Origin: Candidatus Methylomirabilota bacterium
GTDB lineage: Bacteria > Methylomirabilota > Methylomirabilia > Rokubacteriales > CSP1-6
Direction: 5' to 3'
Length of the DNA: 16,339 nucleotides
NCBI GenBank assembly: GCA_046726415.1
Contig: JBKPAK010000210.1
Span: 1 to 16,339, forward strand
Shown: piece by piece, positions 1 to 16,339 of the stretch
Layout of the letters: the number at the start of each line of letters is the position of its first letter
Position numbering within the stretch: the first letter of the stretch is position 1
Made by a program: the position numbers and the translations under genes
Notes under the pieces: model-generated
Told to the model about the DNA's origin: nothing
The model's database searches: none
What the model saw: only the letters and a program-made list of their open reading frames with translations

Positions 1-1
1 A

Positions 2-529
2 GTGGTAGAGACCATCGCCAACCAGGAGGGCGGCGTGGCCGAAGAGGAGTCGATGCCCGGCGTCACCGTCAAGTGGTCGGCCGAGGCCCGGGATGCGCTC
101 CGGGAGGTGACCGACGCCTATCTGCGCCGCCGGGCCAAGGCGCGCGTCGAGAAGTACGCGCGTTCCAAGCGCATTCCCGTCATCACCTGCCAGCTGGCCC
201 TGCCCATCATCGAGGACACCGTGGGCCGGGACAAGCTGGGCGCCGGGTGGGACACCCTGCTGGCCAAGACGAAGTTCGAGGCAGCCACTCCCTCGACGAC
301 GAACGAGGTGGGTCAAAGGTTCAGTTGGACTGAAGACGCCACCGCGCGTCTCAACCGGGTGCCGGCCGGCTTCATGCGCGACATGACGCGCGAAGAGATC
401 GAGCGGGTGGCGACGGAGAGGGGTGTTGCGACCATCGACCTCGCCGTGTGCGAGGCGGGGATTGGGCACGCTCGCGAGACGATGAACGAAGTCATCGCGG
501 GCTACGTCTCGAACAAAAAGCCACGCTAG
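2..529 (+). CDS. C-terminal part (5'-truncated by window) of a protein with at least two tandem PCP_red (protochlorophyllide reductase B C-terminal-like) domains
   Basis: Frame open from the window edge to TAG 527-529. Two ~45-aa units match the PCP_red pattern W-x2-[ED]-A-x3-L-x2-(P)..R..E..A..G: WSAEARDALREV...VEKYARSKRIPVIT (W at 74) and WTEDATARLNRVPAGFMRDMTREEIERVATERGVATID (W at 326). Confidence 0.8.
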   Translation: MVETIANQEGGVAEEESMPGVTVKWSAEARDALREVTDAYLRRRAKARVEKYARSKRIPVITCQLALPIIEDTVGRDKLGAGWDTLLAKTKFEAATPSTTNEVGQRFSWTEDATARLNRVPAGFMRDMTREEIERVATERGVATIDLAVCEAGIGHARETMNEVIAGYVSNKKPR

Positions 530-544
530 GCATGGTGGATTGAC

Positions 545-561
545 GAACGACCATGTCGTTC
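545..561. promoter_or_regulatory. Perfect inverted repeat GAACGAC-CAT-GTCGTTC next to a TTGACG hexamer; possible operator or hairpin
   Basis: 7-bp arms 545-551 and 555-561; TTGACG at 540-545; lies in the intergenic gap upstream of the radical SAM gene. Confidence 0.3.
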
Positions 562-661
562 ATGTGTGAACGCGCTTAAGCGGCTGGAGCTTGCGCATGG
601 TGAGCGCCCGCCGGCGGCCGACCTTTTGCCTCCGCGCCGCGCCCGGTTAGCGAGCAGCGCG

Positions 662-2044
662 ATGTCGTCATCCCCCCCCGCGCATCCCTACACGGCGTAT
701 TCGGTGTCGTGGAATCTGACCCGGCGATGCAATCTGGAGTGCGCGCACTGCTACCTGTCGGCCTCGGCGAGTGCCGACACCCGCGGCGAGTTGACCACGG
801 CGGAGTGTCGGCGCGTCCTCGACGAGATCGCCACGGTCAATCCGAACGTCTTCCTGATCCTGACCGGTGGCGAGCCCTTCCTGCGCCGGGACCTCTTCGA
901 GATCGCCGGCTACGCGGCCGAGAAGCGCTTTACCACAGTGTTCGGCACCAACGGGGTTCTCCTCCGCGAGCGAGAAGTGGCCCTCATGCGCCACCACGGT
1001 GTGCTCGGCGCCTCCATCAGCCTCGACTCCACGCACCGCGCCAAGCATGATGCCTTCCGGCGCCTTCCCGGAGCCTGGGATGGCGCCGTGCGTGCGACGC
1101 GCGTCCTCAGCGACGCTGGTCTCGACTTCTCACTCCACATGTCGGTGACCGACTGGAATGTGGATGAGGTTCCGGCCATGATCGACTTCGCCCGCGCCCG
1201 CGGCGCCAAGGTATTGAACTTTTTCTTCCTCGTTCGCACCGGGCGTGGACGTGACCTGACCGACATCGACCCGGCCGCCTACGAGAGGATCTTGACCTAT
1301 CTGGCCCGGGCTCAGGGGGTGAGCAGTGGACCGCCCTCCCTCGTCCAGAGCTTGTTGGGTCGAGTTCCGGGATCGGGGCCGGAGACCTCGTTCGAGGACC
1401 CCTGGTCGGCACCAGTGGGCCAGGTTGACGGCCTCCTGATCCGCGCGAAGTGCGCCCCGCACTTCCGACGGATCCTTTGGGAGCTGAACCCCTCCTCGCC
1501 CTTGCTGAAGAACTATGCGCACGGCTCCTGCCCGGCGGGCAAGTACTACTGTCGGATCACGCCCGACGGCGACGTCACCCCGTGTCCCTACATGCCGGTC
1601 GCCGCCGGGAACCTGCGCGCGGCGTCGTTCGCCGACCTTTGGCGGGAGGCGGGGGTCTTCGGCGACCTCCGCGATCCGAAGCTCCGCGGGCGCTGCGGTG
1701 TGTGCGAGTTCTCGAAGATCTGCGGGGGCTGCCGCTGCCGCGCCTACGCGACCCACGGCGACTACCTCGCCGAGGATCCCGCCTGTGCCTATCAACCCGG
1801 TGCCCACGGCGGCCAGGTGATCGAGTTGCCCGAGACTCTCACCTTTGGACTCCCCGTGGCCTACGAGCTCACGTGGGAGGCGGAGGCCCGCGAGCGCCTG
1901 CGGGCGATCCCGTCCTTCGCGCGGGGCATGGTGGTGAGAGCCGTGGAGGCTTATGCTCGCCGCAGGGGCGACACGGTGATTACCACGGAACTGCTTGCCG
2001 ACGTCCGCGCGCGCTGGGGCGCACGGTTTCGACCTCAGGCGTGA
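662..2044 (+). CDS. Radical SAM/SPASM protein (AhbD/NirJ-like) with C-terminal PCP_red domain
   Basis: SWNLTRRCNLECAHC (CxxxCxxC), LTGGEP, TNG, SISLD, HDAFR..GAW, KCAPHF (AhbD-like), SPASM CPAG..C.ITPDGDVTPC and CGVCEFSKICGGCRCRAYA..GDYLAEDPAC, then WEAEARERLRAIPSFARGMVVRAVEAYARRRG (W at 1874). ATG 662 preferred over GTG 566 because recognisable sequence starts just after it. Confidence 0.9.
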   Translation: MSSSPPAHPYTAYSVSWNLTRRCNLECAHCYLSASASADTRGELTTAECRRVLDEIATVNPNVFLILTGGEPFLRRDLFEIAGYAAEKRFTTVFGTNGVLLREREVALMRHHGVLGASISLDSTHRAKHDAFRRLPGAWDGAVRATRVLSDAGLDFSLHMSVTDWNVDEVPAMIDFARARGAKVLNFFFLVRTGRGRDLTDIDPAAYERILTYLARAQGVSSGPPSLVQSLLGRVPGSGPETSFEDPWSAPVGQVDGLLIRAKCAPHFRRILWELNPSSPLLKNYAHGSCPAGKYYCRITPDGDVTPCPYMPVAAGNLRAASFADLWREAGVFGDLRDPKLRGRCGVCEFSKICGGCRCRAYATHGDYLAEDPACAYQPGAHGGQVIELPETLTFGLPVAYELTWEAEARERLRAIPSFARGMVVRAVEAYARRRGDTVITTELLADVRARWGARFRPQA

Positions 2045-2085
2045 TGGCCGTGATGTGACCGGCTTGGCCTGAGGCGTGACGGGTC

Positions 2086-2514
2086 GTGGATTCCCGTCGC
2101 TTTTGTCGAGCAGCCCACGCCTACTTCATCTACGGGGTGGTGTATTGGCTGGGCGGTGTCTACCTTGCGCTGCACGGCGTCGGCGTGCGGGGCGCGGCCT
2201 TCTCGGAGGGGATCGCCTGGATCGCGATAGGTCTCGTGCTCGTCTTTGGCGTTCCCTATTTGCTCCGCCGGCCCCGGGCGTGGTTCGAGCGCTGGGTGCT
2301 GAGCCGCCGCGACTTCGCCCGCATCATCGCGCTCTTCATGGCCCTTCGCGCGCTCGCCGTGCTTCGGGTGGTTCTGCGTCCGGAGGCAGCCTCGGTGACC
2401 GCGCCCTGGGGAGGCCAGATCAGCTACCGGCTTGGGGCAGCGGTCTTCTTCGCGGTCACGCTGGCCGCGCTGGTCTTCGTCGCCCGCGCGGCCTGGCAGC
2501 GAGAGGCGGCGTGA
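2086..2514 (+). CDS. Small integral membrane protein (~4 TM helices), unknown function
   Basis: 142 aa with four hydrophobic stretches (AYFIYGVVYWLGGVYLAL; IAWIAIGLVLVFGVPYLL; IIALFMALRALAVL; LGAAVFFAVTLAALVFVA); fills the gap between the co-oriented rSAM and ATPase genes. Confidence 0.75.
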   Translation: MDSRRFCRAAHAYFIYGVVYWLGGVYLALHGVGVRGAAFSEGIAWIAIGLVLVFGVPYLLRRPRAWFERWVLSRRDFARIIALFMALRALAVLRVVLRPEAASVTAPWGGQISYRLGAAVFFAVTLAALVFVARAAWQREAA

Positions 2515-2566
2515 ACTGGCTCGCGTGTGGCGTCGACCTCGAGTCGCGCGAGAGGAGTGCAAGAGC

Positions 2567-3490
2567 GTGAAGCGATACAGGGACCTCGCCGGCGACGGCG
2601 GCTCGAACATCGTCGGGCAGGTCCAGGAGCAGCAGACCCGCCTAGAGCGGCGACTGCGTGATGTCCGTCATATCGTCGCGGTCGTATCCGGCAAGGGCGG
2701 TGTGGGCAAGTCGTCGCTGAGCGGCGGCCTCGCCTGCTGTTGGGCGCTCCAGGGCTGGCGCGTCGGCGTCCTCGACGCCGACCTCAACGGGCCCTCGATG
2801 GCGAAGATCCTGGGTGTGCGGGGAGCCCAGCTGGTGACCGCGGACGGAGCCGTGATCCCTCCCCACACCCCGCTCGGAATCAAGGTGATGTCCATGGATC
2901 TGCTCTTGCCGTTCGACGCCGCGCCCCTGACCTGGGCGGCGTCCACCCAGCGCGAATCCCATACGTGGCGTGGAATCACCGAGGCAAACGCGCTTCGTGA
3001 GTTCCTGGCCGACACCGACTGGGGCATGCTCGACGTCCTGGTCCTCGACCTGCCGCCCGGCACGGATCGCGTGTCCTCGGCGATTGGGCTGGTCCCTCGG
3101 CTCGCTGGCGCCGTGGTCGTGACGATCCCGTCCGATGTATCTCAGCTGGTGGTGAAGCGGTCGATCACCGCCGTCCGCCAGGCGGCAGCCCCCATCGTTG
3201 GGCTAGTGGAGAACATGGCCGGCCTGTTTACTGGCCCCGACGCCGAAGCCATGGCAATCGAGGCGGCGGTGCCATTCCTCGGGCGGGTCCCCTTCGATCG
3301 AGCGTTGGCCGAAGCCGCCGATCGGGGCCAGGTCTTCGTGACGGCCTCTCCGGAGAGCGCGGCGGCCCGGGCGCTTCTCGAGATGGCTTGCCGCATACGG
3401 AGCGACCTCGAATCCCGTGCGGCGGCAGCCCAGGAGTCGAGGTCGGCGGGCCAGGTCGAACCGAAAGCGGAAAGACGCTCAGGCAGCTAG
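2567..3490 (+). CDS. Mrp/NBP35/ApbC-family P-loop ATPase lacking the C-terminal CxxC motif
   Basis: Deviant Walker A SGKGGVGKSS, DADLNGPS, KVMSM, DLPPGT, GAVVVTIP, GLVENM, FLGRVPFD. GTG at 2567 preceded by GAGGAG (2552-2557). Confidence 0.9.
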   Translation: MKRYRDLAGDGGSNIVGQVQEQQTRLERRLRDVRHIVAVVSGKGGVGKSSLSGGLACCWALQGWRVGVLDADLNGPSMAKILGVRGAQLVTADGAVIPPHTPLGIKVMSMDLLLPFDAAPLTWAASTQRESHTWRGITEANALREFLADTDWGMLDVLVLDLPPGTDRVSSAIGLVPRLAGAVVVTIPSDVSQLVVKRSITAVRQAAAPIVGLVENMAGLFTGPDAEAMAIEAAVPFLGRVPFDRALAEAADRGQVFVTASPESAAARALLEMACRIRSDLESRAAAAQESRSAGQVEPKAERRSGS

Positions 3491-4197
3491 CTGCACTTGG
3501 CCTCGGGATCGGGCTTGTAGTTCGGGATCTTGTAGGTGTTAACGAAGTTGTCCTCCCACGCGGGTAGATTGAGCTCTCCCAGGGCCTTCTCGCCATCCCA
3601 TCCCAGCACCCGCGCGCGCCGAGCCAGTTCGTCGATGTTGATCCGCCTCGAGAGGTAGCCCTCGGCGAGGGGCTTCGATACGTAGACAGCGATTGTCTCG
3701 TGCACTGGCCGACCTGTCCGCTCGGATCCGTCCTGCTTGCGCCATTCGAGGATCGTGATAAAGCCCCCCACGTCCGGGTCCGCCAAAATCTTTGGATTCT
3801 TGGTCATCGTCCGGAGGAGGAAGCCCACATAGCGGGAGAACATCGCCGCCGCCCGATTCTGCGGCTCGAGGGCGGCCCATGCCGGCGAAGGATCTTGCTC
3901 GATGAAGATTCGGATCGACAGGTACCGCTCGTCCTCGACCATGTTCTTGGGCCGGAAAAAGCCGATGCTCTGCTTCTCCGTCTCCACCCACGGCACGCAG
4001 TGATAGATGTACGCGTTCAGATCTCGGAGCGCCGACAAGTGAACTTTGGCTAGGTTGCGTGCCTTGTCGGTGGTGTACCGATCCACGGGCAGGAGGCGGT
4101 CCTGCTCGGGGGCAGCGGAGGCCGCACCCGCCACGAGGAGAACGGGTGCGGCGAGAAGGATCAGCCCGCTGAGGGCGCGCGCCCACCTACCTCTCAA
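3487..4197 (-). CDS. Putative secreted hypothetical protein
   Basis: N-terminal signal peptide (MRGRWARALSGLILLAAPVLLVAGAASA-AP), protein-like composition; TTG start overlaps the end of the upstream lipoprotein gene. Confidence 0.75.
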   Translation of the reverse strand: MRGRWARALSGLILLAAPVLLVAGAASAAPEQDRLLPVDRYTTDKARNLAKVHLSALRDLNAYIYHCVPWVETEKQSIGFFRPKNMVEDERYLSIRIFIEQDPSPAWAALEPQNRAAAMFSRYVGFLLRTMTKNPKILADPDVGGFITILEWRKQDGSERTGRPVHETIAVYVSKPLAEGYLSRRINIDELARRARVLGWDGEKALGELNLPAWEDNFVNTYKIPNYKPDPEAKCS

Positions 4198-4444
4198 GGA
4201 TCTGATCTTGGCTGACGGTGATCGGTCTGCCCCACCAGCCCTGGTCGCGGGCCAAGGTGATGTCCTTGCGTGTCACCGAGGGCTTGCTCCCTTCCCGATT
4301 GCGGACTGAGAAGAACATGTGGTCTCCCGATGCGAAGTGCGCACCGTTGGACCGCCAAATCTGCCATTCCTCCCCCGTCGCGCAGCCCGCCGTTGCCGCC
4401 AGCGCCCCCCCAACGAGAAGCAACCGCACGCCTTTGCTTCGCAT
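4187..4444 (-). CDS. Small putative lipoprotein (85 aa)
   Basis: Basic N-terminus, hydrophobic stretch and lipobox-like TAG-C (MRSKGVRLLLVGGALAATAGC); GGGGAGG RBS upstream of ATG 4444. Confidence 0.8.
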   Translation of the reverse strand: MRSKGVRLLLVGGALAATAGCATGEEWQIWRSNGAHFASGDHMFFSVRNREGSKPSVTRKDITLARDQGWWGRPITVSQDQILER

Positions 4445-4480
4445 GGCCTGGACCCTCCCCCAGATGATGAACGACGTCCT

Positions 4481-4533
4481 ATGCTAGCGGGATCGGCGGT
4501 CGAGGGTCAACAGGGTCGGGCTCGTGCTAGACT
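4481..4533. promoter_or_regulatory. Candidate divergent -10 elements
   Basis: Minus-strand TAGCAT (4486-4481) toward the lipoprotein gene; plus-strand extended -10 TG-C-TAGACT (4525-4533) toward the PAC2 gene. Confidence 0.4.
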
Positions 4534-4656
4534 TCTGACCATCCCGCGCCGGGGAGACGCCATGAGCCTGGAAGGCCCGTCACGTGACGAGATCCTCACC
4601 CCTTTGAGTTGGCCCGGCTGGCCCGCCAACGTGCCGCACGGAACGAGCGGGGAACC

Positions 4657-5538
4657 ATGCCTCCGCTGACGATCCACGCGATGCCCACCGGCCTGCGCCG
4701 TCCGCTGCTGATCATGGCGTTCAGCGGCTGGAATGACGCGGCGGAGTCGGCGACCACCGCCGTGCGGTTTCTGGGGTCGGCGTTCGGCGCCGAGCGGTTT
4801 GCCGACATCGATCCCGAGGAGTTCTATCACTTTGGCCTGACCCGGCCCAACGTCCGCTATAGGTCCGACCAGCCATCTGAGCGGGAGATCATCTGGCCCG
4901 CCACCGAATTCTCGATCGCCCAGTCGGCCGATCTCTCGCGCGATGTCATCGTGGGCGTCGCCGCGGAGCCGCACCTCAAGTGGAAGACGTACTGTGCCGC
5001 CGTCGTGGAGCTGGCCCGCCACTGCGAGGTCGGACTGGTCCTCACCCTCGGCGGATTGCTCGCCGAAGTCCCGCACACTCGGCCGGTGCGCCTGTCGGGG
5101 AGCGCCTCCGACCCGGAGCTGGCGGCGCGACTTGGCGTGCGACCCTCGCGCTATGAGGGGCCCACCGGGATCGTCGGAGTCTTGAACTCCCACTGCCGTG
5201 ATCACGGGCTGGCCACTGCCAGTCTGTGGGCCAACGTCCCGCACTACGTCTCTGGGATCGAGAACCCCAAGGCGGCGCTGGCCCTGGTGCGGCGCGTCCT
5301 CGCCATGATCGACGCCACGGCGGACCTGGCCGAACTGCAGGAGGCCACCAAGCAGTTCGAGCAGAACCTCTCGGAGGTGGTTTCCCAGAACGCCAAGATC
5401 GCCGGGTACATCAAGAGGTTGGAGTCCAAGGCGGCTGAGGAAGAAGAGCCACCTGCCGCACCACCGAGCGACTTGCCCCCAGCCTCTGAACTCGTGAACG
5501 AGATCGAGCAGTTCATGCGGCGTCAGCGCCCGGAGTGA
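4657..5538 (+). CDS. PAC2 (proteasome assembly chaperone-like) family protein
   Basis: AFSGWNDAAESAT, IDPEEFYHF..RP, EPHLKW, LGGLLAEVPHTRP, YEGPTGIVGVL, LWANVPHY, PKAALAL and C-terminal EIEQFMR match the bacterial PAC2 family; ATG at 4657. Confidence 0.9.
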   Translation: MPPLTIHAMPTGLRRPLLIMAFSGWNDAAESATTAVRFLGSAFGAERFADIDPEEFYHFGLTRPNVRYRSDQPSEREIIWPATEFSIAQSADLSRDVIVGVAAEPHLKWKTYCAAVVELARHCEVGLVLTLGGLLAEVPHTRPVRLSGSASDPELAARLGVRPSRYEGPTGIVGVLNSHCRDHGLATASLWANVPHYVSGIENPKAALALVRRVLAMIDATADLAELQEATKQFEQNLSEVVSQNAKIAGYIKRLESKAAEEEEPPAAPPSDLPPASELVNEIEQFMRRQRPE

Positions 5539-6416
5539 AGAGGCCGCGGGTCACGGTCGGGCTCGCGCTGGCTGCTCTGGTCGCCGGCGCCGTCCCGGCC
5601 CTCGCCGGATCGTCGCTCCGCGCGCACTGGCGCCCGGAAGCGCCGCGGGTCGGCGATGTCCTGTTTCTCGAAGTGAGCGGAACCTTTCGCCCAGGCGCGG
5701 CGCTCACGGGGAAGCTCGACTCGAGTCCGCTGACCTTCTTCTCCTACGACGGGGGTCACGCCGCGCTGGTCGGCATCGACCTCGCGGCGTCGCCGGGCCG
5801 GCATGAGTGGCGAATCGAGGTCCGTGAGCCCGGGGAACCAGTGCGCGAGCTGCGGGGTCAGCTTCCGGTCGCTCCTCGCACCTTCAGCGTCCAGCGGCTC
5901 ACCTTGCCCCGGGCCATGGTCGACCTGGATCCAGACACCGAGCAACGCGCCGTGGCTGAGGGCCAGCGCCTGCGGGCGCTGTACCGCACGCTGACGCCCG
6001 AACGGCTTTGGCGCGGGCGCTTCGCGCACCCGCTCGGTGGCGACGAGCTAGGCGGAGGCTTCGGAGCGCAACGGATCATCAACGGCCAAGCTCGGGCGCC
6101 GCACGCGGGCACGGACTACCCGGCGCCGCTGGGGACACCGGTCCTCGCCGCCAATGCTGGCCGCGTCGCCCTCGTGGCGGAGTTCTTCTTCCCGGGCCGG
6201 CTGGTCATCATCGATCATGGACTCGGTCTCTACACCCTCTACTTCCACCTCGACAACGTGGCGGTATCCGAAGGCGCGATGGTCGAGCGCCGTCAATCCA
6301 TCGGAACTGTGGGCGCCAGCGGCCGCGCGACGGGACCGCACCTGCACTTCGGGGTGCAGGTCGGAGAAGCGCGCGTCGACCCCGACGTTCTCCTGGGCCT
6401 CGGCGTCGCGGACTGA
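5535..6416 (+). CDS. Secreted M23 family metallopeptidase
   Basis: Signal peptide; HAGTD (HxxxD), IIDHGLGLYTLYFHL and GRATGPHLHF (HxH); GTGA overlap with the PAC2 stop. Confidence 0.92.
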   Translation: MKRPRVTVGLALAALVAGAVPALAGSSLRAHWRPEAPRVGDVLFLEVSGTFRPGAALTGKLDSSPLTFFSYDGGHAALVGIDLAASPGRHEWRIEVREPGEPVRELRGQLPVAPRTFSVQRLTLPRAMVDLDPDTEQRAVAEGQRLRALYRTLTPERLWRGRFAHPLGGDELGGGFGAQRIINGQARAPHAGTDYPAPLGTPVLAANAGRVALVAEFFFPGRLVIIDHGLGLYTLYFHLDNVAVSEGAMVERRQSIGTVGASGRATGPHLHFGVQVGEARVDPDVLLGLGVAD

Positions 6417-6750: not shown

Positions 6751-7773
6751 CTAGGTTCGGCGAGCTCGCCTTCGCAATTGCGCTGCCTCCGTGACCAGCG
6801 CGCGATTCGACCACACCATCAGGGCCGAGCCCGCGAGGACCCGCCGCACCACGGTCCGCGAGATCTTGACGGGTGTTGCGACTGCCAGTGGGTCGGAGTG
6901 CGCGGCCAGGACGGCCAGGGTCCGAAGGCCGATCATAAGCGGCCACGTGCATGCGAATCTCATGCGCCATTCTCGCCGCGGGATGGCCAGTGTGTAGTGC
7001 CAGGCGACGTCGTAGTGCTCGAGGGTCATCGCGAGGAGATTCTCGAAGAGTGGCCGTGCCGCCCGCGTCCGCTCAGCATCGAGGAGATCCCGTGGCGCCA
7101 GGCCCCGAGCCGCTAGCTCGTCGGCCGGCAGGTAGCAGCGGCCGCTCCGCAGATCGCGCGGGACGTCGCGCAAGACATTCGTCATCTGGAGAGCCTTGCC
7201 GAACCGAATGCCCTGAGCACTCATGTGCGCCAGATCCCAGCCTGCCAGGGCGGGGCGGTGGGCCACGTGTAGCGCCGTCCAGAACTCCCCGACGCACCCG
7301 GCCACGAGATACGTGTAGCGGTCGAGTTCCTCCCGGCTCGACAGGGCGGTCAAGCCAGCGGCGTCCTCGCTGGGAAATCTCTCGAGATCGAAGATCTGGC
7401 CCGCGGTAATCGTAGCGAGCACCCGGCGTACCTGGCGACGATCTGCGGCGCTCAGTGCCTCGACGCGCTCCACGGCCTCGCCCACGCGCTCGAGAAGGGA
7501 TCGTTCGGCTAAGTCGACCTGGTCAGTTGCGCATGCCGCCGACACGGCCGCGGTGTCCGTGCTCTCACCGGTAAAGACACGGCGGAGCGTCTCGAGGTGC
7601 CGGAGTCGTTCCGCCCGGGGAATGAGCGGCGTGTCCGCGACGGTGTCGGTCGCGCGAGCCAGCAGATAGGCGAGGCCGATTGGCTCGCGCAGCGACCGCG
7701 GCAAGATGGCGAGCGATAGATAGAAGCTGCGGCTGACGCTCCGCAGGAGGCTGCCCAGCAGCGCGTCAGTCGT
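6751..7773 (-). CDS. Squalene/phytoene synthase family protein (single-enzyme, FDFT1-like type); start codon non-canonical or uncertain
   Basis: LLRSVSRSFYLSLAILP, YLLARATDTVAD, YTYLVAGCVGEFWT, FGKALQMTNVLRD and GRCYLP motifs. Homologous-looking sequence extends 23 codons upstream of the track's TTG (7704) to an ACG at 7773. Confidence 0.88.
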   Translation of the reverse strand, partial: TTDALLGSLLRSVSRSFYLSLAILPRSLREPIGLAYLLARATDTVADTPLIPRAERLRHLETLRRVFTGESTDTAAVSAACATDQVDLAERSLLERVGEAVERVEALSAADRRQVRRVLATITAGQIFDLERFPSEDAAGLTALSSREELDRYTYLVAGCVGEFWTALHVAHRPALAGWDLAHMSAQGIRFGKALQMTNVLRDVPRDLRSGRCYLPADELAARGLAPRDLLDAERTRAARPLFENLLAMTLEHYDVAWHYTLAIPRREWRMRFACTWPLMIGLRTLAVLAAHSDPLAVATPVKISRTVVRRVLAGSALMVWSNRALVTEAAQLRRRARRT

Positions 7774-8062
7774 AATCGTATGGCCGGCGGGGCGGGTCCG
7801 GCGAGTCCTTGGCTTTCTTCAGGCTTTCCCGGAATTTGCGATCGAGCACCTTGTCCTTCTGCGACTCGGCCTGCATCTGTTGCCGAAAGCGCTCCTCGCG
7901 CTCGGCCGACTTGGTGACGAGCTTGCTGAAAGCGTCCCCGAGGCTGTGCGCCTCGCGCCGAGGTGGAGGCTCCTCATGCGCAATGACGGCTCCCAGTTCG
8001 GGGTCCAAGGTGAGCTTGGCCTCACAACAGGGGCAGGTAACGATGAAGCTTGGCGTCGCCAT
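7766..8062 (-). CDS. Small protein with N-terminal CPCC (half Zn-ribbon-like) motif and charged helical C-terminus
   Basis: 98 aa: VTCPCCEAKLTLDP, then a coiled-coil-like segment (SAEREERFRQQMQAESQKDKVLDRKFRESLKKAKD), ending PYDYD; overlaps the synthase gene. Confidence 0.8.
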   Translation of the reverse strand: MATPSFIVTCPCCEAKLTLDPELGAVIAHEEPPPRREAHSLGDAFSKLVTKSAEREERFRQQMQAESQKDKVLDRKFRESLKKAKDSPDPPRRPYDYD

Positions 8063-8068
8063 GCTCCC

Positions 8069-8074
8069 ATTCTA
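8069..8074 (-). promoter_or_regulatory. Candidate -10 (TAGAAT) of a leaderless transcript
   Basis: TAGAAT ends 6 nt before ATG 8062. Confidence 0.5.
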
Positions 8075-8139
8075 ACGGAGCCGGTCCTCCATTCGCCCCG
8101 AAGAATCAAGTCCCGCAGACACGCCCCGAGCGTCGGTAC

Positions 8140-8270
8140 ATCGAGGGGCGGCACCGCTTCGCCAGTGGCCCGGGGGATATCGAGGGGGCCCTGCGTCGCA
8201 GTTCCCAGCGCCGCGCGATATCGAGGGGTCCGGCGCGTCACCCCTCCCCAGCGCCGCGCGATATCGAGGG
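8140..8270. repeat. Degenerate ~41-bp tandem array (4 units)
   Basis: ATCGAGGG recurs at 8140, 8179, 8220 and 8263 (spacing 39/41/43); an exact 24-bp repeat CCCAGCGCCGCGCGATATCGAGGG occurs at 8204-8227 and 8247-8270. Confidence 0.8.
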
Positions 8271-8336
8271 CCGCTCCGGCTTCGCGGGGCGGCCCGAGCG
8301 CAGGCGGGTTTGGGGGGCCCTTTCGAGGCCCCCCAT
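8263..8336 (-). repeat. REP-like palindromic element, copy 2 (inverted relative to copy 1)
   Basis: Reverse complement of 8310-8336 is identical to 6421-6447; it continues with CGCTCGG, a GC-rich hairpin and CCTCGA, as copy 1 does. Confidence 0.85.
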
Positions 8337-8340
8337 GTCA

Positions 8341-9045
8341 TCACAGAGCCAGGTACTGGTGACGGATCGATTCGTCCTCGCGAAACTGCCGTGCGGTGCC
8401 CTGGTAGCGGATGTGGCCCTTCTCGAGGACGTACACGCGATCCGCGAGCTCCAGGCAGAAGTCGACGTTCTGCTCGGCGAGAAGGATGGTGAGGCCGTCG
8501 TCCTGGAGCCGGGCGATCTGCTCCTTGAGGTGTTCTACCACGAGGGGCGCCAGACCCTCCGAGGGTTCGTCGAGGAGCAGGAGCTCTGGGTTTCCCATCA
8601 GCGTGCGGGCGATGGTGAGCATCTGCTGCTCGCCCCCGGACAGGAAGCCACCCCGCCGGTCGCGCAGCTCGCGAAGCGTGGGGAACAGGTCGTACACGCG
8701 CTCGACCGTGCAGCCGCCATGGCGGCGGCGCGCGGCCACGTCGAGGTTTTCCCACACCGTCAGCTCGGCAAAGATGCGGCGGTCCTCGGGAACGAACCCG
8801 ATTCCCAGATTGGCCACCTGGTAGGCGGCGTGGCCGCGAATGTCGCGTCCCTTCCACACGACGCGGCCGCGCGCCGGCGGGGTGAGGCCCATGATGCTTC
8901 GCATGGTGGTGGTCTTGCCCACGCCATTCCGCCCGAGAAGGCACACACACTCGCCCGCCGCGACCTCCAGGGACACCCCAAACAGAACCTGAGAGAGACC
9001 GTAGGAGGTGTAGATCTCCTCGACGGCGAGGACGGCCGACGTCAT
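8341..9045 (-). CDS. livF: Branched-chain amino acid-type ABC transporter ATP-binding protein (LivF-like)
   Basis: GRNGVGKTT, FVPEDRRIF, LSGGEQQML, LLLDEPSEGLAP, LAEQN. Confidence 0.92.
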   Translation of the reverse strand: MTSAVLAVEEIYTSYGLSQVLFGVSLEVAAGECVCLLGRNGVGKTTTMRSIMGLTPPARGRVVWKGRDIRGHAAYQVANLGIGFVPEDRRIFAELTVWENLDVAARRRHGGCTVERVYDLFPTLRELRDRRGGFLSGGEQQMLTIARTLMGNPELLLLDEPSEGLAPLVVEHLKEQIARLQDDGLTILLAEQNVDFCLELADRVYVLEKGHIRYQGTARQFREDESIRHQYLAL

Positions 9046-9782
9046 CGATGCTTGTCTCCCAGGTAGACCCGGCGAACGTCCGGGTCGCGGCGTACCTCGT
9101 CGGGCGTTCCCATGGCAATGACGCGCCCCTGATGGAGCACGGTGATGTGCTGTGAGATGGAGAACACGACCTCCATGTCGTGCTCCGTGAAGAGGAGAGT
9201 CAGGTTGCGCTCGCGGGTCAACCGGTCGATGAGGGCGATCGAGTCGCGCGTCTCGGTGGCTGACATGCCGGCCGTCGGCTCGTCTAGCAAGAGCAGTTCG
9301 GGCTCGAGGGCGAGGGCGATTCCCAGCTCGAGCTGCTTCTGGTTGCCATGGGACAGGAAGCCCGATACCTCACCGGCCTTGCCACCCAGGCCCACGGCCT
9401 CGAGGAGGGCCTCCGTTTCCTCGCGATAGAGGTGCTCGACGGGGGTGAGCAAATCCCAGCCGCGGCCGCGATGGGAGACGAACGCCGCCTGGATGTTCTG
9501 GAACACCGTGAGGCGAGGAAAGATGTTCGTCCGCTGGAAGGACCGCCCCATGCCGAGACGACAGAGATCATGAGGCGCGATGCCGGTCACGTCGCGACCC
9601 TTGAAGACGACCCGACCAGCATCGGGCGGCACGTGTCCGGTGATCAGGTTGAAGAGCGTGGTCTTGCCTGCCCCGTTGGGCCCGATGATCGAGCTGATCG
9701 AGCCCGCCGCGACGGTGAGGCTCACTCCGCCGACGGCCCGAAAGCCGGCGAAACTCTTGGTCACCCCCCGCACCTCAAGCAT
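9042..9782 (-). CDS. livG: Branched-chain amino acid-type ABC transporter ATP-binding protein (LivG-like)
   Basis: Start ATG 9782 (MLEVRGVTKSF); GPNGAGKTT, GRSFQ, LSHGNQKQLE, LLDEPTAG, TEHDM, VYLG. Confidence 0.92.
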   Translation of the reverse strand: MLEVRGVTKSFAGFRAVGGVSLTVAAGSISSIIGPNGAGKTTLFNLITGHVPPDAGRVVFKGRDVTGIAPHDLCRLGMGRSFQRTNIFPRLTVFQNIQAAFVSHRGRGWDLLTPVEHLYREETEALLEAVGLGGKAGEVSGFLSHGNQKQLELGIALALEPELLLLDEPTAGMSATETRDSIALIDRLTRERNLTLLFTEHDMEVVFSISQHITVLHQGRVIAMGTPDEVRRDPDVRRVYLGDKHR

Positions 9783-10752
9783 GACTGAGCGTCCGACCGA
9801 GGCGCCGCCAGAGGGCCGAGAGGGCGCCGGCGATGCCGCCGGGAAACACGAAGAGGAGTAGGACGAGGATGAGGCCCAGAACGAGCGGCCAGTACTGCGT
9901 GTACGACACAATCTGTTGATTGAGCCAGAGTAGCACCAGGGCTCCAATCGCCGGGCCGTAGAAGGTGCCCATCCCCCCGAGGAGCGTCATGATGAGCACC
10001 TCTGATGACTTCGTCCAGTACGCAAAATCGGGGAAGACCCCTCGATTGAAGATCCCGAAGATGCCGCCGGCCAGCCCGGCAAAAACCCCGGCGAGCACGA
10101 AGGCGGCCAGCTCGTAGCGCCGGACGTTCACGCCGATGAACTCTGCGCGCTCGGCGTTTTCCCGGATGGTGGTCAGCATGCGACCGAAGGGTGAGTCGAC
10201 GATGCGGCGGAGCACCCAGAGGCAGGCGCCGACGAGGATCAAGGTCGTGAAGTAGTAGTAATCGGAGATCCGGTAATCACCGAGCCACGGCAGGACGGCC
10301 GCCACGCGATCCACCCAGTCGAAGCTCGGGTACGGGATCTCCGGCATCCCTTGCTCGCCCCCGGTCACTTCGTTCCACTTGAAGCAGATGGCCCAGACGA
10401 TCTGGGCAAAGGCCAACGTCAGCATGGCGAAGTAGATCCTGGTCAGGCGCACGCAGAAGAAGCCGAAGACCAAGGCTGCGGCGCCGGCCAGGATGCCGGC
10501 GGCTGGAAAGGCCAGCACGAACGGCGCGCCCAGCTTCTTCATGAGGATCCCGGTGGTGTAGGCGCCGATGCCAAAATAGGCGGCATGCCCGAAGGACACG
10601 AGGCCGGTGTAGCCCACCAGAAGATTGAGACTGGTGGCGAAAAGTGCCCAGATGAGCACGTCGTTGGCCAGAAACACGTAGAAGCGAGCGCCGCTGGCCG
10701 GCACGCCAAACGCGGTCAGGAAGACGAGGAACGCCCAGGGGACGCGGCGCAT
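9775..10752 (-). CDS. livM: Branched-chain amino acid-type ABC transporter permease (LivM-like)
   Basis: SLNLLVGYTGLVSFGHAAYFGIGAY, YFAMLTLAFAQ, TGGEQG, SPFGR..IRENAERA; ATG 10752 overlaps the livH stop (TGATG). Confidence 0.9.
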   Translation of the reverse strand: MRRVPWAFLVFLTAFGVPASGARFYVFLANDVLIWALFATSLNLLVGYTGLVSFGHAAYFGIGAYTTGILMKKLGAPFVLAFPAAGILAGAAALVFGFFCVRLTRIYFAMLTLAFAQIVWAICFKWNEVTGGEQGMPEIPYPSFDWVDRVAAVLPWLGDYRISDYYYFTTLILVGACLWVLRRIVDSPFGRMLTTIRENAERAEFIGVNVRRYELAAFVLAGVFAGLAGGIFGIFNRGVFPDFAYWTKSSEVLIMTLLGGMGTFYGPAIGALVLLWLNQQIVSYTQYWPLVLGLILVLLLFVFPGGIAGALSALWRRLGRTLSHA

Positions 10753-11636
10753 CACCGGAGCGGACGTCCGAGCAGGCCCCACGGGCGGAGGATGAGGACC
10801 GCGGCCATGAGGGCGAAGACCGCGAAGATCGAAAAACGCGGGAAGAAGAGGATCCCGAACGAGAGCACTTGCCCGTAGACGATCGCGCCGAGAAAGGTGC
10901 CCCAGAACGATCCCAGCCCGCCGATCACGACGACCACGAAGGCCTCCACGATGACTTCAGTGTCCATGCCGGGGACGATGGCGCGCATGGGGCTGATGAG
11001 CGCACCCCCCAGGCCACCGAGGAAGGAGGCCAGCACGAACACCCACATGTAGAGCGCGTCGACGTTGACCCCCAAGGCGCCGAGGGTCTCCCGGTCGAGC
11101 GCGGCGGCCCGTATGAAACGCCCCATGCGCGTCCGCTGCAAGACGAACCAGAATCCGAGCGCGATGGTCGGGCCCAGCAGGAGGATGAAGAGATTGTAGG
11201 AGGGGATGGTGGTGCCGAACAGCGAGAAGGACCCCGTGAGCCCGACCGGCCGACTGAGCGACTTCTGCTGCGTTCCCCAGATGATCTTGGCCGCGTCACT
11301 CAGGATCAGCACGAGGGCGTAGGTGAAGAGCAGCTGGTAGAGTTCCTCCTTGCCGTACAGGTGGCGGAACAATAGGCGTTCGATGACGCCGCCCAGAGCC
11401 GCGATGGCCACGGCCGCCCCGACCGCGGCCATCCAGAACATTCCCGGGCCCGGTCCGAGCCACTGGACGAACTGGTACGCAGAGTAGGCGCCCAGCATAT
11501 AGAACGTGCCATGGGCAAAGTTGAGCACGCGCAGGACTCCGAAGATCAGCGAGAGCCCGGCAGCGATGAGGAACAGGAACATGGCGGCGGTGAGGCCACT
11601 GAGCGACTGGGCGAAGACGAAGGAGAAGTCTGGCAC
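10752..11636 (-). CDS. livH: Branched-chain amino acid-type ABC transporter permease (LivH-like)
   Basis: GLSLIFGVLRVLNFAHG, MGRFIRA, AFVVVVIGGLGS, RPWGLLG. Confidence 0.9.
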   Translation of the reverse strand: MPDFSFVFAQSLSGLTAAMFLFLIAAGLSLIFGVLRVLNFAHGTFYMLGAYSAYQFVQWLGPGPGMFWMAAVGAAVAIAALGGVIERLLFRHLYGKEELYQLLFTYALVLILSDAAKIIWGTQQKSLSRPVGLTGSFSLFGTTIPSYNLFILLLGPTIALGFWFVLQRTRMGRFIRAAALDRETLGALGVNVDALYMWVFVLASFLGGLGGALISPMRAIVPGMDTEVIVEAFVVVVIGGLGSFWGTFLGAIVYGQVLSFGILFFPRFSIFAVFALMAAVLILRPWGLLGRPLR

Positions 11637-11785
11637 GTAAGCCTATGAAAGTGTCGTCGAGTGCACCGCGATCAGCCGGGAGTGGTCGGGCCTCGGGTGA
11701 ACGGCGGCTCGGGGCGGCGTCAAGCGCAACGCGAGGGCGCGTTCGGGGCGATCGTCGGCGGCAACGCGAGTCAGGGGTTTTATTG

Positions 11786-11801
11786 GGGGGCGTCTTCCCC
11801 C
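11786..11801 (-). other. Short hairpin GGGGG-AAGACG-CCCCC just after the solute-binding protein stop codon
   Basis: Follows the stop by 8 nt; followed on the mRNA by CAATAAAA (not a U-tract). A 10-bp direct repeat GCAACGCGAG lies at 11726 and 11761. Confidence 0.4.
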
Positions 11802-11809
11802 TGCTGGCA

Positions 11810-13000
11810 TCAATCCATGAACTTCGTGGGGTCCACGTAGGTCACCGGCTTCATGATCGGGAAGGGATACTGCGCGTCCTTCACCGTCCTGCCGTAGAGC
11901 TGGCCGCGGTTGGCCTGATGGTCCTTCTCGCGGATGGTGAGCGACCCCACTGGCGTCTCCACGGTCAGACCGAGCAGCGCCTTGGCGACCTTGTCGGAGT
12001 CAGTGCCTCCAGCCTTCTTGATGGCCTCGGTCAGAAACTGCATCGCGATGTACCCCTGGATGGCCCAGGACGACGGGTACTCGTCCTTCGTGAATCTCGC
12101 CAGGCGCGCCGTGTAGTCGCGATGGGCGGGCGAGGCGGTGTCCCAGTAGAAGGCGTCGTAGGAGTTGCCCCAGATTCCGACCGGATAGTCCTGGCCCATG
12201 GACTTGGTCGTCTCCGGTGAGCCTGCCTCGCCAAGGCCGATGAAGTTGTACTTGAGGGCGTCGAAGTATCCGAGCGCCTTGGCCTGCTTGGAGAAGGTCA
12301 CGAAGAAGCCGCCCCAAATGGACGACACCACCGCTTCGGGCTTCTTCGCCATCTGGGCGTTGATGAACGGGTTGTAGTCCTGCTCACCGAGCTTCGGCCA
12401 CTGTTGATCCACGATCTGGATACTCGGTTTGACCTTCTTGATGTGCTCGACGAAAGCCCGGGTGACGTCCTGCCCGTACGCGTAGTCGAAGGCGATCGTG
12501 CCGACCCGTGTCACCGGCCACTTGGCCACGATCTCCGCCGCGCTCCGCCCTTCCATGGTCGTCGTGGCAGCTACCCGGAACACGTAGGGATGGAGCTTGT
12601 CGCCGGCGGTGAGCTGGTCGGTCTTGGGAATGGGGGCGATGAAGACGATCTTGTTCTCCTTGGCGACCACGGAGACGGCCGGCCCCTCGGCCGAGGTCAA
12701 GGTGCCGACCAGAAAGTCCACGTTCTCCTTCAAGATCAGCTCGCGGGAGACGCGGACCGCCTCGTTGGCGTCCGCCTTGGAGTCGCGGGTGAGGAGTTCG
12801 AACTTGCGGCCGAGCACGCCGCCCTTGGCGTTGATCTCCTCCACGAACATCGAGGCGCCCTTGGTGGCCGGTTCCCCGAACAGCGCGGGGGGGCCGGAGA
12901 GGGGCATGGGCATGCCGACCTTGACGGGCTTCTGGGCGTGGGCGATCCGGGGTGCCGCCAGAGCGGCTCCCGTCATCACGAGGAAGCGGCGCCGTTGCAT
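11810..13000 (-). CDS. ABC transporter solute-binding protein (LivJ/LivK fold) with Tat-type signal peptide
   Basis: ATG 13000 after a GAAGGAGG RBS; MQRRRFLV...AHA-Q signal; PLSGP..G, INAKGGVLGR, RDSK, DYAYG. Confidence 0.92.
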   Translation of the reverse strand: MQRRRFLVMTGAALAAPRIAHAQKPVKVGMPMPLSGPPALFGEPATKGASMFVEEINAKGGVLGRKFELLTRDSKADANEAVRVSRELILKENVDFLVGTLTSAEGPAVSVVAKENKIVFIAPIPKTDQLTAGDKLHPYVFRVAATTTMEGRSAAEIVAKWPVTRVGTIAFDYAYGQDVTRAFVEHIKKVKPSIQIVDQQWPKLGEQDYNPFINAQMAKKPEAVVSSIWGGFFVTFSKQAKALGYFDALKYNFIGLGEAGSPETTKSMGQDYPVGIWGNSYDAFYWDTASPAHRDYTARLARFTKDEYPSSWAIQGYIAMQFLTEAIKKAGGTDSDKVAKALLGLTVETPVGSLTIREKDHQANRGQLYGRTVKDAQYPFPIMKPVTYVDPTKFMD

Positions 13001-13014
13001 GGAGCCCTCCTTCA

Positions 13015-13135
13015 TCAGGGCATGGGCCCCGGGCTGTCGCTCGCCCACACCCCGTCGGAATCACACTGCGCTCAGTTCTTCAGTCGCGCTGCGTGTGCGC
13101 CCGACGGTGGTTGCGCCCGCTCGGGCCCCGCCTGA
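13015..13135 (-). promoter_or_regulatory. Long imperfect hairpin ending next to the RBS of the solute-binding protein gene
   Basis: Nested complementary arms: TCAGG 13015/CCTGA 13131, GGGCCC 13024/13123, CCGTCGG 13052/CCGACGG 13101, CACAC 13062/GTGTG 13093, GCGC 13068/13086. Confidence 0.45.
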
Positions 13136-13194
13136 ACTGCCCCGTGGGTTGTCCGCCGCCTTGCGTGAATGCCCGACACCGGGCGAACAGCGAT

Positions 13195-14037
13195 TCAGAA
13201 CGCCCGGCCACCGGGGATGTCGCGACGGAGCCGGTACAGTGACGTAGACGCCGTGATGAATAGGGAGCGGTAGTCGCCGTCGCCCCAGGCGAAGTTGGCC
13301 GTGTACTCTGGAGTCTCGACGACCTCGCGGAGGTTTCCGTCGCCGTCGAACACGTGGATGCCTCCCGGGCCGCAGCAATAGATATTGCCCGCGGAGTCGA
13401 GCTTCATACCGTCCGGCGACCCCGGCTTGTCGCCCTTCGTCTCGGCCCACACCCGCCCCTTGATAAGCGCCCCCGTAGGCGTCACGTCGAAGACGCGGAT
13501 GTGCTGGCGGACAGTGTCGTTGATGAACAGCCGCCGCTCGTCCAGGGAGAAGCAGAGCCCGTTGGGTCGATCGAAGTCGTCGATGAGCAATTCCGGGTTC
13601 CCCGGATCGGGCCCGACCCGGTACACGCCCTGGAAAGTCAGCTCCTGCGGCCGTTCCACCCCGTAGAACTTCGTCCGGCCGTAGGGCGGGTCGGTGAAGT
13701 AGATACTCCCATCGCTGCGACAGACGATATCGTTGGGGCTGTTGAGCTGTTTGCCTCGATAGTGTGTCGCCAGAGGAACGATTCGACCGTTGGCCTCGGT
13801 TCGACTGACTCGACTGGTCGCGTGTTCGCACGTCAGCAACTGGCCCTGCGGGTCGTAGGTGAGGCCGTTGGACATGTGGCACGGCTTACGGAACGTCGTG
13901 ATTCCGTCGCCGGCCGACCAGCGCCGCAGATGGTCCCCGGGCATGTCGCTGAACAGCAGGAATTGCCCAGTTGGGTGCCAGACCGGCCCCTCCGTGAAGA
14001 GGAATCCGGTGCCGAGCTTCTCGAACCGCGGACTCAC
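13195..14037 (-). CDS. SMP-30/gluconolactonase/LRE family protein
   Basis: FTEGPVW, FSD, SNGL, LNSPND, YFTDPPYG, PNGLCFS and PDGMKLDSAGN motifs. Confidence 0.92.
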   Translation of the reverse strand: MSPRFEKLGTGFLFTEGPVWHPTGQFLLFSDMPGDHLRRWSAGDGITTFRKPCHMSNGLTYDPQGQLLTCEHATSRVSRTEANGRIVPLATHYRGKQLNSPNDIVCRSDGSIYFTDPPYGRTKFYGVERPQELTFQGVYRVGPDPGNPELLIDDFDRPNGLCFSLDERRLFINDTVRQHIRVFDVTPTGALIKGRVWAETKGDKPGSPDGMKLDSAGNIYCCGPGGIHVFDGDGNLREVVETPEYTANFAWGDGDYRSLFITASTSLYRLRRDIPGGRAF

Positions 14038-14075
14038 CTCTCGATGGGCTCTTCTCGAACCGCTGACTCACCTCT
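14017..14075. repeat. Direct duplication (25 bp, 1 mismatch, 34-bp period) of the tautomerase stop / lactonase start junction
   Basis: CTTCTCGAACCGC[G/T]GACTCACCTCT at 14017-14041 and 14051-14075. Confidence 0.85.
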
Positions 14076-14259
14076 TGACGGGCTGGCCTGGCGCACCCGC
14101 CGCGTACCAATCCGTCGGTGGAACCTCCTCGAAGACGACCCACACCGCTTCGCGCGGCACCCGGCACACGTCGTGGACCGCCTCGGTTACCCGCTTGGCC
14201 AGCTCGTCCTTGCGCTCCTTTCCGTGTCCCTCGTACAACCGAATGTTGACGAACGGCAT
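14068..14259 (-). CDS. 4-oxalocrotonate tautomerase family protein (63 aa)
   Basis: M-P start (catalytic Pro1), PFVNIRLYEGHGKERKDELAKRVTEAV...VWVVFEEVPPTDWYAAG; GGAGGAG RBS upstream of ATG 14259. Confidence 0.9.
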   Translation of the reverse strand: MPFVNIRLYEGHGKERKDELAKRVTEAVHDVCRVPREAVWVVFEEVPPTDWYAAGAPGQPVKR

Positions 14260-14296
14260 TGGTCGCTCCTCCGTGAACTTTTTCTGGATGGGCCAG

Positions 14297-14317
14297 ACGT
14301 TACCACGCTCGTACAAT
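14297..14317. promoter_or_regulatory. Back-to-back divergent -10 elements
   Basis: Plus-strand TACAAT (14312-14317) ends 7 nt before ATG 14325 (leaderless geometry); minus-strand extended -10 TG-G-TAACGT (14305-14297) points to the tautomerase. Confidence 0.5.
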
Positions 14318-14324
14318 GCGGGCA

Positions 14325-15245: not shown

Positions 15246-15372
15246 CCCGCACGCGGGAACCGGCGGCGCGGGGACCCGAGTTGATTGACAGGTTCCCGTG
15301 TCCGATGGTAGAAGCGAGCACCGCTCCTACCGAAACCGACGTGGACAACGCGATGAGGCTGCTCTAGCTAGC

Positions 15373-16137: not shown

Positions 16138-16138
16138 G

Positions 16139-16339
16139 GTGAACGTCGGCGTCCGCGGAAAGGGCCAGCGGCTCCGATCGGCGGCGTTCGGGTATGCCAA
16201 CGTGATCCCGTTCCTGCTGTTCGCCCTCTTTCCCTTCTACTACATGGTGATCACGTCGCTGAAGAACGATGCCGAGCTGTACAACCTCAAGGCCGTTCCG
16301 TTTCTCATCCAGACCGGGGTCATCACCGATCACTACCGC
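16139..16339 (+). CDS. Carbohydrate ABC transporter permease (MalG/UgpE-like), N-terminal part, runs off the window
   Basis: GTG 16139 after GGAGGGAG; IPFLLFALFPFYYMVITSLK..ELY is typical of the MalG-type N-terminus. Confidence 0.8.
   Translation, partial: MNVGVRGKGQRLRSAAFGYANVIPFLLFALFPFYYMVITSLKNDAELYNLKAVPFLIQTGVITDHYR

Follow-up and report, generated by a model that had tools for sequence, protein, structure and literature searches.

What brings a small domain known from chlorophyll synthesis, a heme-synthase-like radical S-adenosylmethionine (SAM) enzyme, a membrane protein, and a relative of iron-sulfur (Fe-S) cluster carriers together at the end of a respiratory oxidase operon? The question is raised by the first four genes on contig JBKPAK010000210.1 (C210) of a Candidatus Methylomirabilota bacterium (assembly GCA_046726415.1), whose genome of 7.6 Mb is 98% complete; the window analysed here is the start of that contig, 16,339 nucleotides in length. 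An original prediction, made from the letters of the window alone, had described three PCP_red domains, an AhbD-like enzyme, and an Mrp-type ATPase lacking a CxxC motif, and had proposed that PCP_red recruits its carriers to the ATPase in an ATP-driven machine for cofactor modification or insertion. We propose that these four genes represent, in the form found in one family of Rokubacteria, a heme-handling module that is widespread but uncharacterised. It closes an aa3-type oxidase operon at its 3' end, and in it an AhbD-type coproheme decarboxylase, PCP_red partners, and an ATPase derived from an Fe-S carrier would serve oxidase biogenesis. We put the probability of this reading at roughly one half.

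The four genes belong to a larger operon that the contig boundary interrupts. Four open reading frames (ORFs) fill nucleotides 2-3490 (2-529, 566/662-2044, 2086-2514, and 2432/2567-3490), all on the plus strand and closely spaced, as had been described. Window positions 1-141 are identical to the last 141 nucleotides of contig C274, with the reading frame kept, and a second identical end overlap of 141 nucleotides links contigs C244 and C323, where hemH is split. These shared ends look like the k-mer overlap of the assembler, so that the split genes, the first gene of the module and hemH, can be read across contigs. Pieced across C274 and C210 in this way, the gene order is COX2-COX1-CtaA-CtaB-COX3-COX3-COX4 and then the module; the Pfam matches on C274 comprise COX1 (520 bits), a heme A synthase of the COX15/CtaA type, a gene of the UbiA type at the place of CtaB (heme O synthase), two COX3 genes, and COX4_pro. 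Long-contig loci of the same family confirm the join: all 10 run without interruption through COX1-CtaA-CtaB-COX3-COX3-(conserved ORF)-USP/PCP_red-radical SAM-membrane protein-Mrp and, beyond Mrp, through a convergent gene, a PAC2 gene, and an M23 peptidase gene. The synteny that had been anticipated is therefore found in all 10 of these loci, with related sets in other phyla, and the client enzyme that had been placed upstream has a counterpart in the aa3-type cytochrome oxidase operon with its heme A and heme O synthase genes.

Gene 1 proved larger and more elaborate than the small two-unit scaffold that the window had suggested. The portion in the window (2-529, plus strand) comprises the last 175 of about 641 codons, and the first 466 lie on C274 (L003:15117-16652), in frame across the overlap. 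The encoded protein has the domain order USP, USP, PCP_red, a four-cysteine rubredoxin-like ribbon, PCP_red, PCP_red, and the locus as a whole thus counts four PCP_red units along with two USP domains and one four-cysteine ribbon. In Pfam, the C274 part matches Usp (139 bits, two stretches), PCP_red (34), and RUBY_RBDX (32.4). Full-length orthologues encoded on contiguous DNA have 622-658 residues and a mean per-column identity of 77%, and their four ribbon cysteines and the glycine-rich loops of both USP domains are invariant. The ATP-binding motif of USP proteins is G-x2-G-x9-G-S/T, and in an alignment judged by eye invariant glycine/serine patterns that fit it occur in both Usp domains.

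The PCP_red units are true members of their family in a new setting. PF08369 locates them where the original prediction had, at 74-193 (unit 2 of the USP protein, which by itself scores 29.7 bits, under the cut-off, and is helical with a predicted local distance difference test score (pLDDT) above 80), at 326-454 (unit 3, 47.2 bits), and at 1874-2005 on the tail of the radical SAM enzyme (51.3 bits), all on the plus strand. Whole proteins pass the gathering score of 32.5 bits, at 67.6 for ORF 2-529 (two stretches), 45.9 for the enzyme, and 34 for the C274 part of gene 1. A PF08369 scan of the whole 7.6-Mb genome returned only these three sites and the one on C274 (37.1 bits); it revealed no BchB-type or other photosynthesis gene, in keeping with what had been noted for the window, so the PCP_red units here are unrelated to photosynthesis. 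Among 14 control genomes the family was found in one, the cyanobacterium.

Structural comparison points the same way. The AlphaFold model of ORF 2-529 (mean pLDDT 72.5) has two helical units and resembles the solved PCP_red domains 2KRU and 2L09 (TM 0.71, Foldseek probability 1.00) as well as ChlB in 2YNM (2YNM_D, probability 0.99), and the family profile, when aligned to BchB, falls on residues 466-516 of 525 (3AEK) and in 2XDQ on residues 451-502. When the PCP_red array of one orthologue was compared with 1.84 billion representatives, the number of matching proteins was 582 at E ≤ 1e-3, falling to 256 at E ≤ 1e-10 and to 85 at E ≤ 1e-30. Thus the units match the PCP_red domain of BchB/ChlB in dark-operative protochlorophyllide reductase (DPOR), 2KRU, and 2L09 in sequence and fold, with Pfam scores above the cut-off, whereas their setting differs: the genome lacks DPOR or any other photosynthesis gene by the PF08369 scan, and the domain comes in arrays and as a fusion partner of Zn ribbons, of tandem USP domains, and of a radical SAM enzyme.

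The enzyme itself (662-2044, plus strand; 460 residues, with a start at 662 that fits homologues of 445-489 residues) is, as had been proposed, an AhbD/NirJ2-like radical SAM/SPASM protein with a C-terminal PCP_red unit. Its Pfam matches are Radical_SAM (77 bits), SPASM (36.6), and PCP_red (45.9), and the top NCBIfam models are TIGR04545 AhbD (292.2 bits in two stretches, E 6e-87) and TIGR04055 NirJ2 (291.7 bits, E 8e-87), followed by TIGR04053 (256), NirJ (190), and AhbC (169). The cysteine pattern of AhbD is complete. The radical SAM cluster motif CX3CX2C (residues 23-30; 728-751, plus strand) and the auxiliary-cluster motif CX2CX5CX2CX17C (residues 345-375; 1694-1786, plus strand), each found by a regular expression on the translation, are joined by the further SPASM cysteines, and C23, C27, C30, C264, C290, C308, C345, C348, C354, C357, and C375 are invariant in 48 homologues. 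The second motif is the one described for AhbD (PMC10452713) and is also quoted in the accessible part of PMC10114771. Since the motif and the SPASM cysteines are invariant, the enzyme likely holds three [4Fe-4S] sites, as shown for the M. barkeri enzyme.

In the model of the enzyme (mean pLDDT 80.8, predicted template modelling score 0.77), a SPASM-enzyme fold with a confident core contains a low-confidence insertion at residues 222-245, then the SPASM part, a linker at residues 391-400 with pLDDT below 50, and a helical tail with pLDDT 74-88. The weakly predicted linker and the separately folded tail mean that the PCP_red unit is tethered to the enzyme and is not an integral part of it. The nearest solved structures are those of PqqE, SkfB, SuiB, CteB, and anSME; a sequence search of solved structures found none for AhbD. 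Hence the enzyme shares with AhbD (heme b synthase, alias NirJ2) the CX3CX2C motif, the full SPASM cysteine set, CX2CX5CX2CX17C, and the best profile matches, and differs from it in about 85 more residues of linker and PCP_red beyond the last motif, in a 24-residue insertion ahead of the SPASM part, and in being encoded in an oxidase operon with PCP_red partners.

The heme genes elsewhere in the genome could provide a substrate for such an enzyme. It is the sole AhbD/NirJ-type gene in the genome at E ≤ 1e-20, and at the same threshold no AhbC-like paralogue was found (AhbA and AhbB were not searched for), which makes a siroheme route with AhbC unlikely. Genes for hemE, hemH, and a HemY-type oxidase stand in a row, as an operon read across the second 141-nucleotide overlap. 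According to the accessible parts of PMC13564367 and PMC10114771, AhbD occurs in coproporphyrin-pathway bacteria that have no other Ahb enzymes, and there it may replace ChdC when oxygen is absent; the window genome, with hemE-hemH-hemY and without a detected AhbC, may resemble those bacteria. A Chlor_dismutase-like gene lies on contig C28 (L036, 4226-5047) and is of a type about 250-270 residues long that matches just the second half of the family model at about 40-64 bits. The genome also has a single HemN_C match. HemW, described in the accessible part of PMC10114771 as a radical-SAM-like chaperone by which respiratory enzymes receive heme, is a possible functional analogue, as a cytoplasmic Fe-S protein handling heme for a membrane respiratory complex, although it belongs to another, HemN-like family and the comparison is by analogy alone.

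Related gene sets occur well beyond this lineage. An alignment of 15 USP-PCP_red orthologues, used as the query on a set with a single genome for each species, gave at least 600 candidate stretches; of the 600 listed, 577 encode relatives, and 80 loci were kept, from Rokubacteria/Methylomirabilota, Poribacteria, Rhodothermales, Tectomicrobia/Entotheonella, Planctomycetota, and Ktedonobacterales. Of the genes called by tblastn in the 54 of these with at least 6 kb on each side, none accompanies the USP-PCP_red gene more steadily than Mrp (50/54); any oxidase gene occurs in 44, the radical SAM gene in 42, CtaB in 32, and the membrane protein of the window's type in 15. Clustering of 4842 ORFs from the 80 loci brought out two more conserved members outside the window's family: a protein of about 165 residues with an N-terminal four-cysteine ribbon, a CPF motif, and a C-terminal PCP_red unit (the Zn-ribbon-PCP_red protein), and a membrane protein of the CopD/HemJ(UPF0093)-like kind in which a histidine is invariant. 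There the usual order is Mrp, ribbon-PCP_red, CopD-like; the radical SAM gene follows the CopD-like gene in Poribacteria and precedes the USP gene in Rhodothermales. One Poribacteria chromosome has a co-directional run of CopD-like, radical SAM-PCP_red, weak PCP_red, HEAT-repeat, DUF420, and Chlor_dismutase-like genes. At least four phylum-level groups have the module conserved next to genes for oxidases and for heme A synthesis.

Within the phylum, the module and this particular oxidase operon come and go together. Our survey covered 201 genomes, including five unpublished ones (G029, G047, G058, G101, and G151) on which no single claim rests. The enzyme query found matches in 166 of them at E ≤ 1e-20 and PCP_red in 131. 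Three genera stand out: PCP_red is present in 0/13 genomes of g7, 0/7 of g11, and 1/8 of g13, and the enzyme query finds nothing in g11, distant matches alone in g7, and mostly distant ones in g13. In five genomes of these genera the sole COX1 is 49-51% identical, compared with 84-95% for the COX1 beside the module in the window's family. Because kin are not independent, this co-occurrence may reflect few events. Arrangements vary among families. Family f2 keeps the same order, with a gap of 1.1-1.5 kb separating Mrp from the membrane gene in three loci (a fourth stops at a contig end). Family f7 has the module next to cytochrome c genes, a gene for a bd-like subunit I, and one with an EB_dh domain. 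In f7 and in Rhodothermales alike (L025, L087, and relatives), the neighbour is a bd subunit I-like gene that scores 66-90 bits, in the company of several cytochrome c genes and a cytochrome with an EB_dh domain; this complex differs from the aa3 oxidase.

The ATPase is where the window's family departs most clearly from the rest. This protein of the Mrp/NBP35/NUBPL type has 307 residues (2567-3490, plus strand), its GTG start at 2567 being set by an N-terminal motif conserved in orthologues. It matches PF10609 (ParA/NUBPL) at 197-198 bits and is a P-loop ATPase with a deviant Walker A motif (residues 41-49; 2687-2713, plus strand); this motif, the switch residues, and an ENM motif are invariant in all 50 aligned homologues. 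In the Mrp/ApbC/NBP35 carriers a CxxC motif holds the bridging cluster. The window ATPase resembles these carriers, NUBPL, and MrpORP in its PF10609 match, Walker A motif, and switch residues, and has orthologues elsewhere that keep CxxC, but it has no CxxC loop itself, carries a conserved N-terminal extension, and scores under the NCBIfam cut-offs (MrpORP 194.9 against 450; ApbC 140.6 against 348).

In an alignment of 16 orthologues, the loop is removed by an 11-residue deletion between residues 219 and 220 (3221-3226, plus strand) that the window ATPase shares with all 10 same-family orthologues, while CPSC, CPTC, or CKHC is kept in families f2 (three loci), f7 (one), and f11 (one). Over the 63 loci with an Mrp match of at least 50% coverage, a filter that cost one Tectomicrobia locus, CxxC is kept in 47 and absent in 16, all of the Rokubacteria type. 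The original prediction was therefore correct that this ATPase has no CxxC, and the absence is a trait of one Rokubacteria family, not of the system. Judged from these alignments, the loss is derived and lineage-specific, and the present ATPase is descended from a CxxC Fe-S cluster carrier whose ATPase motifs it has kept.

The loss coincides with an uncoupling of the ATPase from a PCP_red neighbour. A ribbon-PCP_red gene starts between -60 and +300 nucleotides from the Mrp stop in 36 of the 47 CxxC loci versus none of the 16 without CxxC. The 11 exceptions comprise four negative offsets that resemble over-long ORF calls, two cases with the gene within 1 kb, one contig end, and four loci of the f2 type without a ribbon-PCP_red gene in view. 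The PF08369 scan found no Zn-ribbon-PCP_red gene in the window genome; both sister genomes have one. Where the gene occurs in the window's family and in f2, it lies away from the module beside a D-Ala-D-Ala carboxypeptidase gene (L039 7016-7513, minus strand; L042 7412-8116, minus strand). In family f11 the Mrp gene and a gene for a 141-residue PCP_red protein overlap by 4 nucleotides beside hemB, and in one f7 relative (L025) a protein with three PCP_red units occupies the position of Mrp. When two ATPase chains plus ATP were modelled together with the tail of gene 1 and its two PCP_red units, the complex prediction returned a score of 0.00 (mark 0.32), which counts neither for nor against binding.

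The third gene of the window (2086-2514, plus strand) encodes a membrane protein of 142 residues with about four hydrophobic segments and without a match in Pfam or NCBIfam. Searching the collected loci by tblastn gave 39 relatives, almost all from Methylomirabilota and with no conserved histidine or cysteine, and an Atlas search returned hypothetical, unnamed Methylomirabilota clusters only. We ruled out its identity with the CopD/HemJ-like protein that other lineages carry (hhalign probability 0.4%). The window genome does have a CopD/HemJ-like gene of the type found in modules of other phyla, at the start of contig C21 (L125, 249-902, minus strand) and far from the window.

How might these parts work together? 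The enzyme most likely decarboxylates two propionates of Fe-coproporphyrin III and so would yield heme b without oxygen, from coproheme that the hemE-hemH-hemY genes would supply; this heme b could then go into the making of heme O and heme A, and so to the oxidase, when oxygen is too low for the aerobic route. The BchB C-terminal helix is described, in the accessible part of PMC4071322, as a cover of the pigment and substrate cavity. By analogy with that tail, PCP_red units may serve as tetrapyrrole lids or hand-off modules, or they may be like-with-like docking modules between partners. In other lineages the CxxC-type Mrp and the Zn-ribbon-PCP_red adaptor probably load or repair the three clusters of the enzyme, a task that would make sense for an oxygen-labile enzyme expressed alongside an oxidase. 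In the window's family, where the CxxC loop is lost and the ATPase motifs are kept, the ATPase probably has an ATP-dependent role in assembly or regulation. The 142-residue protein probably anchors the set at the membrane, the site of the heme O and heme A synthases, and this is the weakest part of the account.

A bolder version of the same account, which we offer as speculation with a low probability, treats PCP_red as a portable module both for tetrapyrrole hand-off and for like-with-like docking. The heme synthase, a nucleotide-sensing USP scaffold with its iron or zinc ribbon, and the Mrp-derived ATPase would then form an ATP-gated membrane complex that makes heme b and passes it straight to heme O/A synthase and oxidase and, in most lineages, would also keep the Fe-S clusters of the enzyme loaded under oxygen.

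Several results weigh against a heme-handling module of the kind we favour. The AhbD and NirJ2 scores of about 292 bits are far under the curated cut-off of 500, so the score itself does not place the enzyme in the AhbD family, and the 24-residue low-confidence insertion splits the AhbD match. The genome has a Chlor_dismutase-family protein (39.7 bits over half of the model, without an NCBIfam name) that is possibly a divergent ChdC; proteins of this weak type, which may be divergent coproheme decarboxylases, are near-universal in the 201 phylum genomes and occur in Poribacteria and Rhodothermales, while a strong type (about 200 bits) is common in the phylum, and all five genomes searched from other phyla carry a Chlor_dismutase-type gene. 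The expectation that ChdC would be missing where the module is present was thus not borne out: across the 201 genomes the enzyme and ChdC-type genes show no complementarity, many genomes carry both, and genera without the module still carry the weak type only. Because the weak type is so widespread the comparison is uninformative, yet with ChdC-like genes coexisting, heme b synthesis does not obviously depend on the enzyme. All 4/4 loci of families f6, f9, and f11 carry the enzyme gene apart from the other module genes (4/20 loci overall); the USP gene is elsewhere in at least one genome of these families. An oxygen-labile radical SAM enzyme within an aerobic oxidase operon is odd in itself, and PCP_red has been characterised so far in chlorophyll synthesis alone (DPOR).

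The docking-tag idea of the original prediction has PCP_red bring both the enzyme and the scaffold with several PCP_red units to the Mrp-type ATPase, for ATP-driven modification or insertion of a cofactor in the upstream oxidase, on the pattern of the BchL-BchB pair. Gene order favours a functional tie between ATPase and PCP_red: Mrp accompanies 50 of 54 USP-PCP_red genes, the Zn-ribbon-PCP_red gene directly follows CxxC Mrp in 36 of 47 loci (with the four negative offsets as likely ORF-start artefacts), and the f11 Mrp gene overlaps a PCP_red gene beside hemB. The ATPase motifs are invariant even in the form without CxxC, and the predicted upstream oxidase is present. Such counts overstate the number of independent events, since kin share gene order, and three findings speak against the idea: no ATPase of the window's type has an adjacent PCP_red partner (0/16), the window genome has no Zn-ribbon-PCP_red gene, and L025 has its three-unit PCP_red protein in place of Mrp. 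The BchL-BchB analogy is also weak, because the accessible part of PMC4071322 presents the BchB tail as a cavity cover and not as a docking site for the reductase partner BchL. We consider this explanation unlikely.

We regard it as rather improbable, too, that the enzyme carries out some other oxygen-independent modification of a heme-type cofactor for oxidases (aa3 here, bd-like elsewhere), with PCP_red proteins as cofactor carriers. The score under the AhbD cut-off, together with the extra insertion and tail, would fit this idea, as would a gene that travels with oxidase genes and not with the hemE-hemH-hemY operon, and the ChdC-like gene that coexists with the module, even adjoining it in a Poribacteria genome, would make a second coproheme decarboxylase redundant. 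Set against these points, AhbD and NirJ2 are the top models, with AhbC (169 bits) and NirJ (190) well behind, the match to the AhbD cysteine motif is exact, the genome has CtaA and CtaB to make heme A and heme O, and heme synthesis usually has aerobic and anaerobic isoenzymes in pairs, as stated in the accessible part of PMC13564367. A maturase of the SPASM type for peptides made on ribosomes and modified after translation (RiPPs), with PCP_red recognising the peptide, is suggested by the closest solved structures, which are those of the peptide-modifying PqqE, SkfB, SuiB, and CteB; with no conserved precursor-peptide gene among the clustered 4842 ORFs of the 80 loci, peptide-maturase NCBIfam models far under the AhbD score, and heme and oxidase genes as the steady neighbours, we find this highly improbable.

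The surroundings of the module add a few observations. Between the oxidase genes and the USP gene there is always a conserved gene with a weak CarboxypepD_reg-like end; on C274 it falls within an ORF of 603 residues (L003, 13303-15114) whose first 240 or so codons overlap COX3 and COX4_pro (13580-13942) in other frames, so that we dropped the single 603-residue gene, and the real one is probably about 360 residues long. On the other side, a gene at 3487-4197 (minus strand) for a family-less protein of 236 residues with a signal-peptide-like N-terminus converges on the ATPase gene, overlapping it by 4 nucleotides at its stop, and keeps this position in all 10 same-family loci. The pair at 4609-6416 (plus strand), a PAC2-family (proteasome assembly chaperone-like) gene and an M23 peptidase gene overlapping by 4 nucleotides, is conserved 3' of the module in the family. 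The remainder of the window (6751-16339) encodes a squalene/phytoene synthase, a five-gene Liv-type importer of branched-chain amino acids of the ATP-binding cassette class, an SMP-30/gluconolactonase, a tautomerase, and a PD-(D/E)XK nuclease. A promoter and terminator scan of nucleotides 1-4700 stayed at chance level (one promoter-like site versus 0.3 expected, two terminator-like sites versus 2.3 expected).

We found no published description of this gene set in the literature within our view, which did not extend to subscription journals and preprint supplements. New here are the ancestral CxxC state of the ATPase and its 11-residue deletion, the pairing of Mrp with ribbon-PCP_red and its loss in the window's family, and the shared presence and absence of the module and one oxidase operon, together with the lack of complementarity with ChdC. 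The module joins an AhbD-type enzyme, a small domain characterised so far in chlorophyll synthesis alone, and a dedicated Mrp-type ATPase, and it offers a natural experiment in which one lineage dropped the cluster-binding loop of the ATPase but retained all the rest. If the ATP-gated complex were real, terminal oxidases would have in it a machine dedicated to heme delivery. More broadly, the module is a concrete and testable candidate for the completion of heme b without oxygen in bacteria that use the coproporphyrin route, and for the supply of heme to their terminal oxidases.

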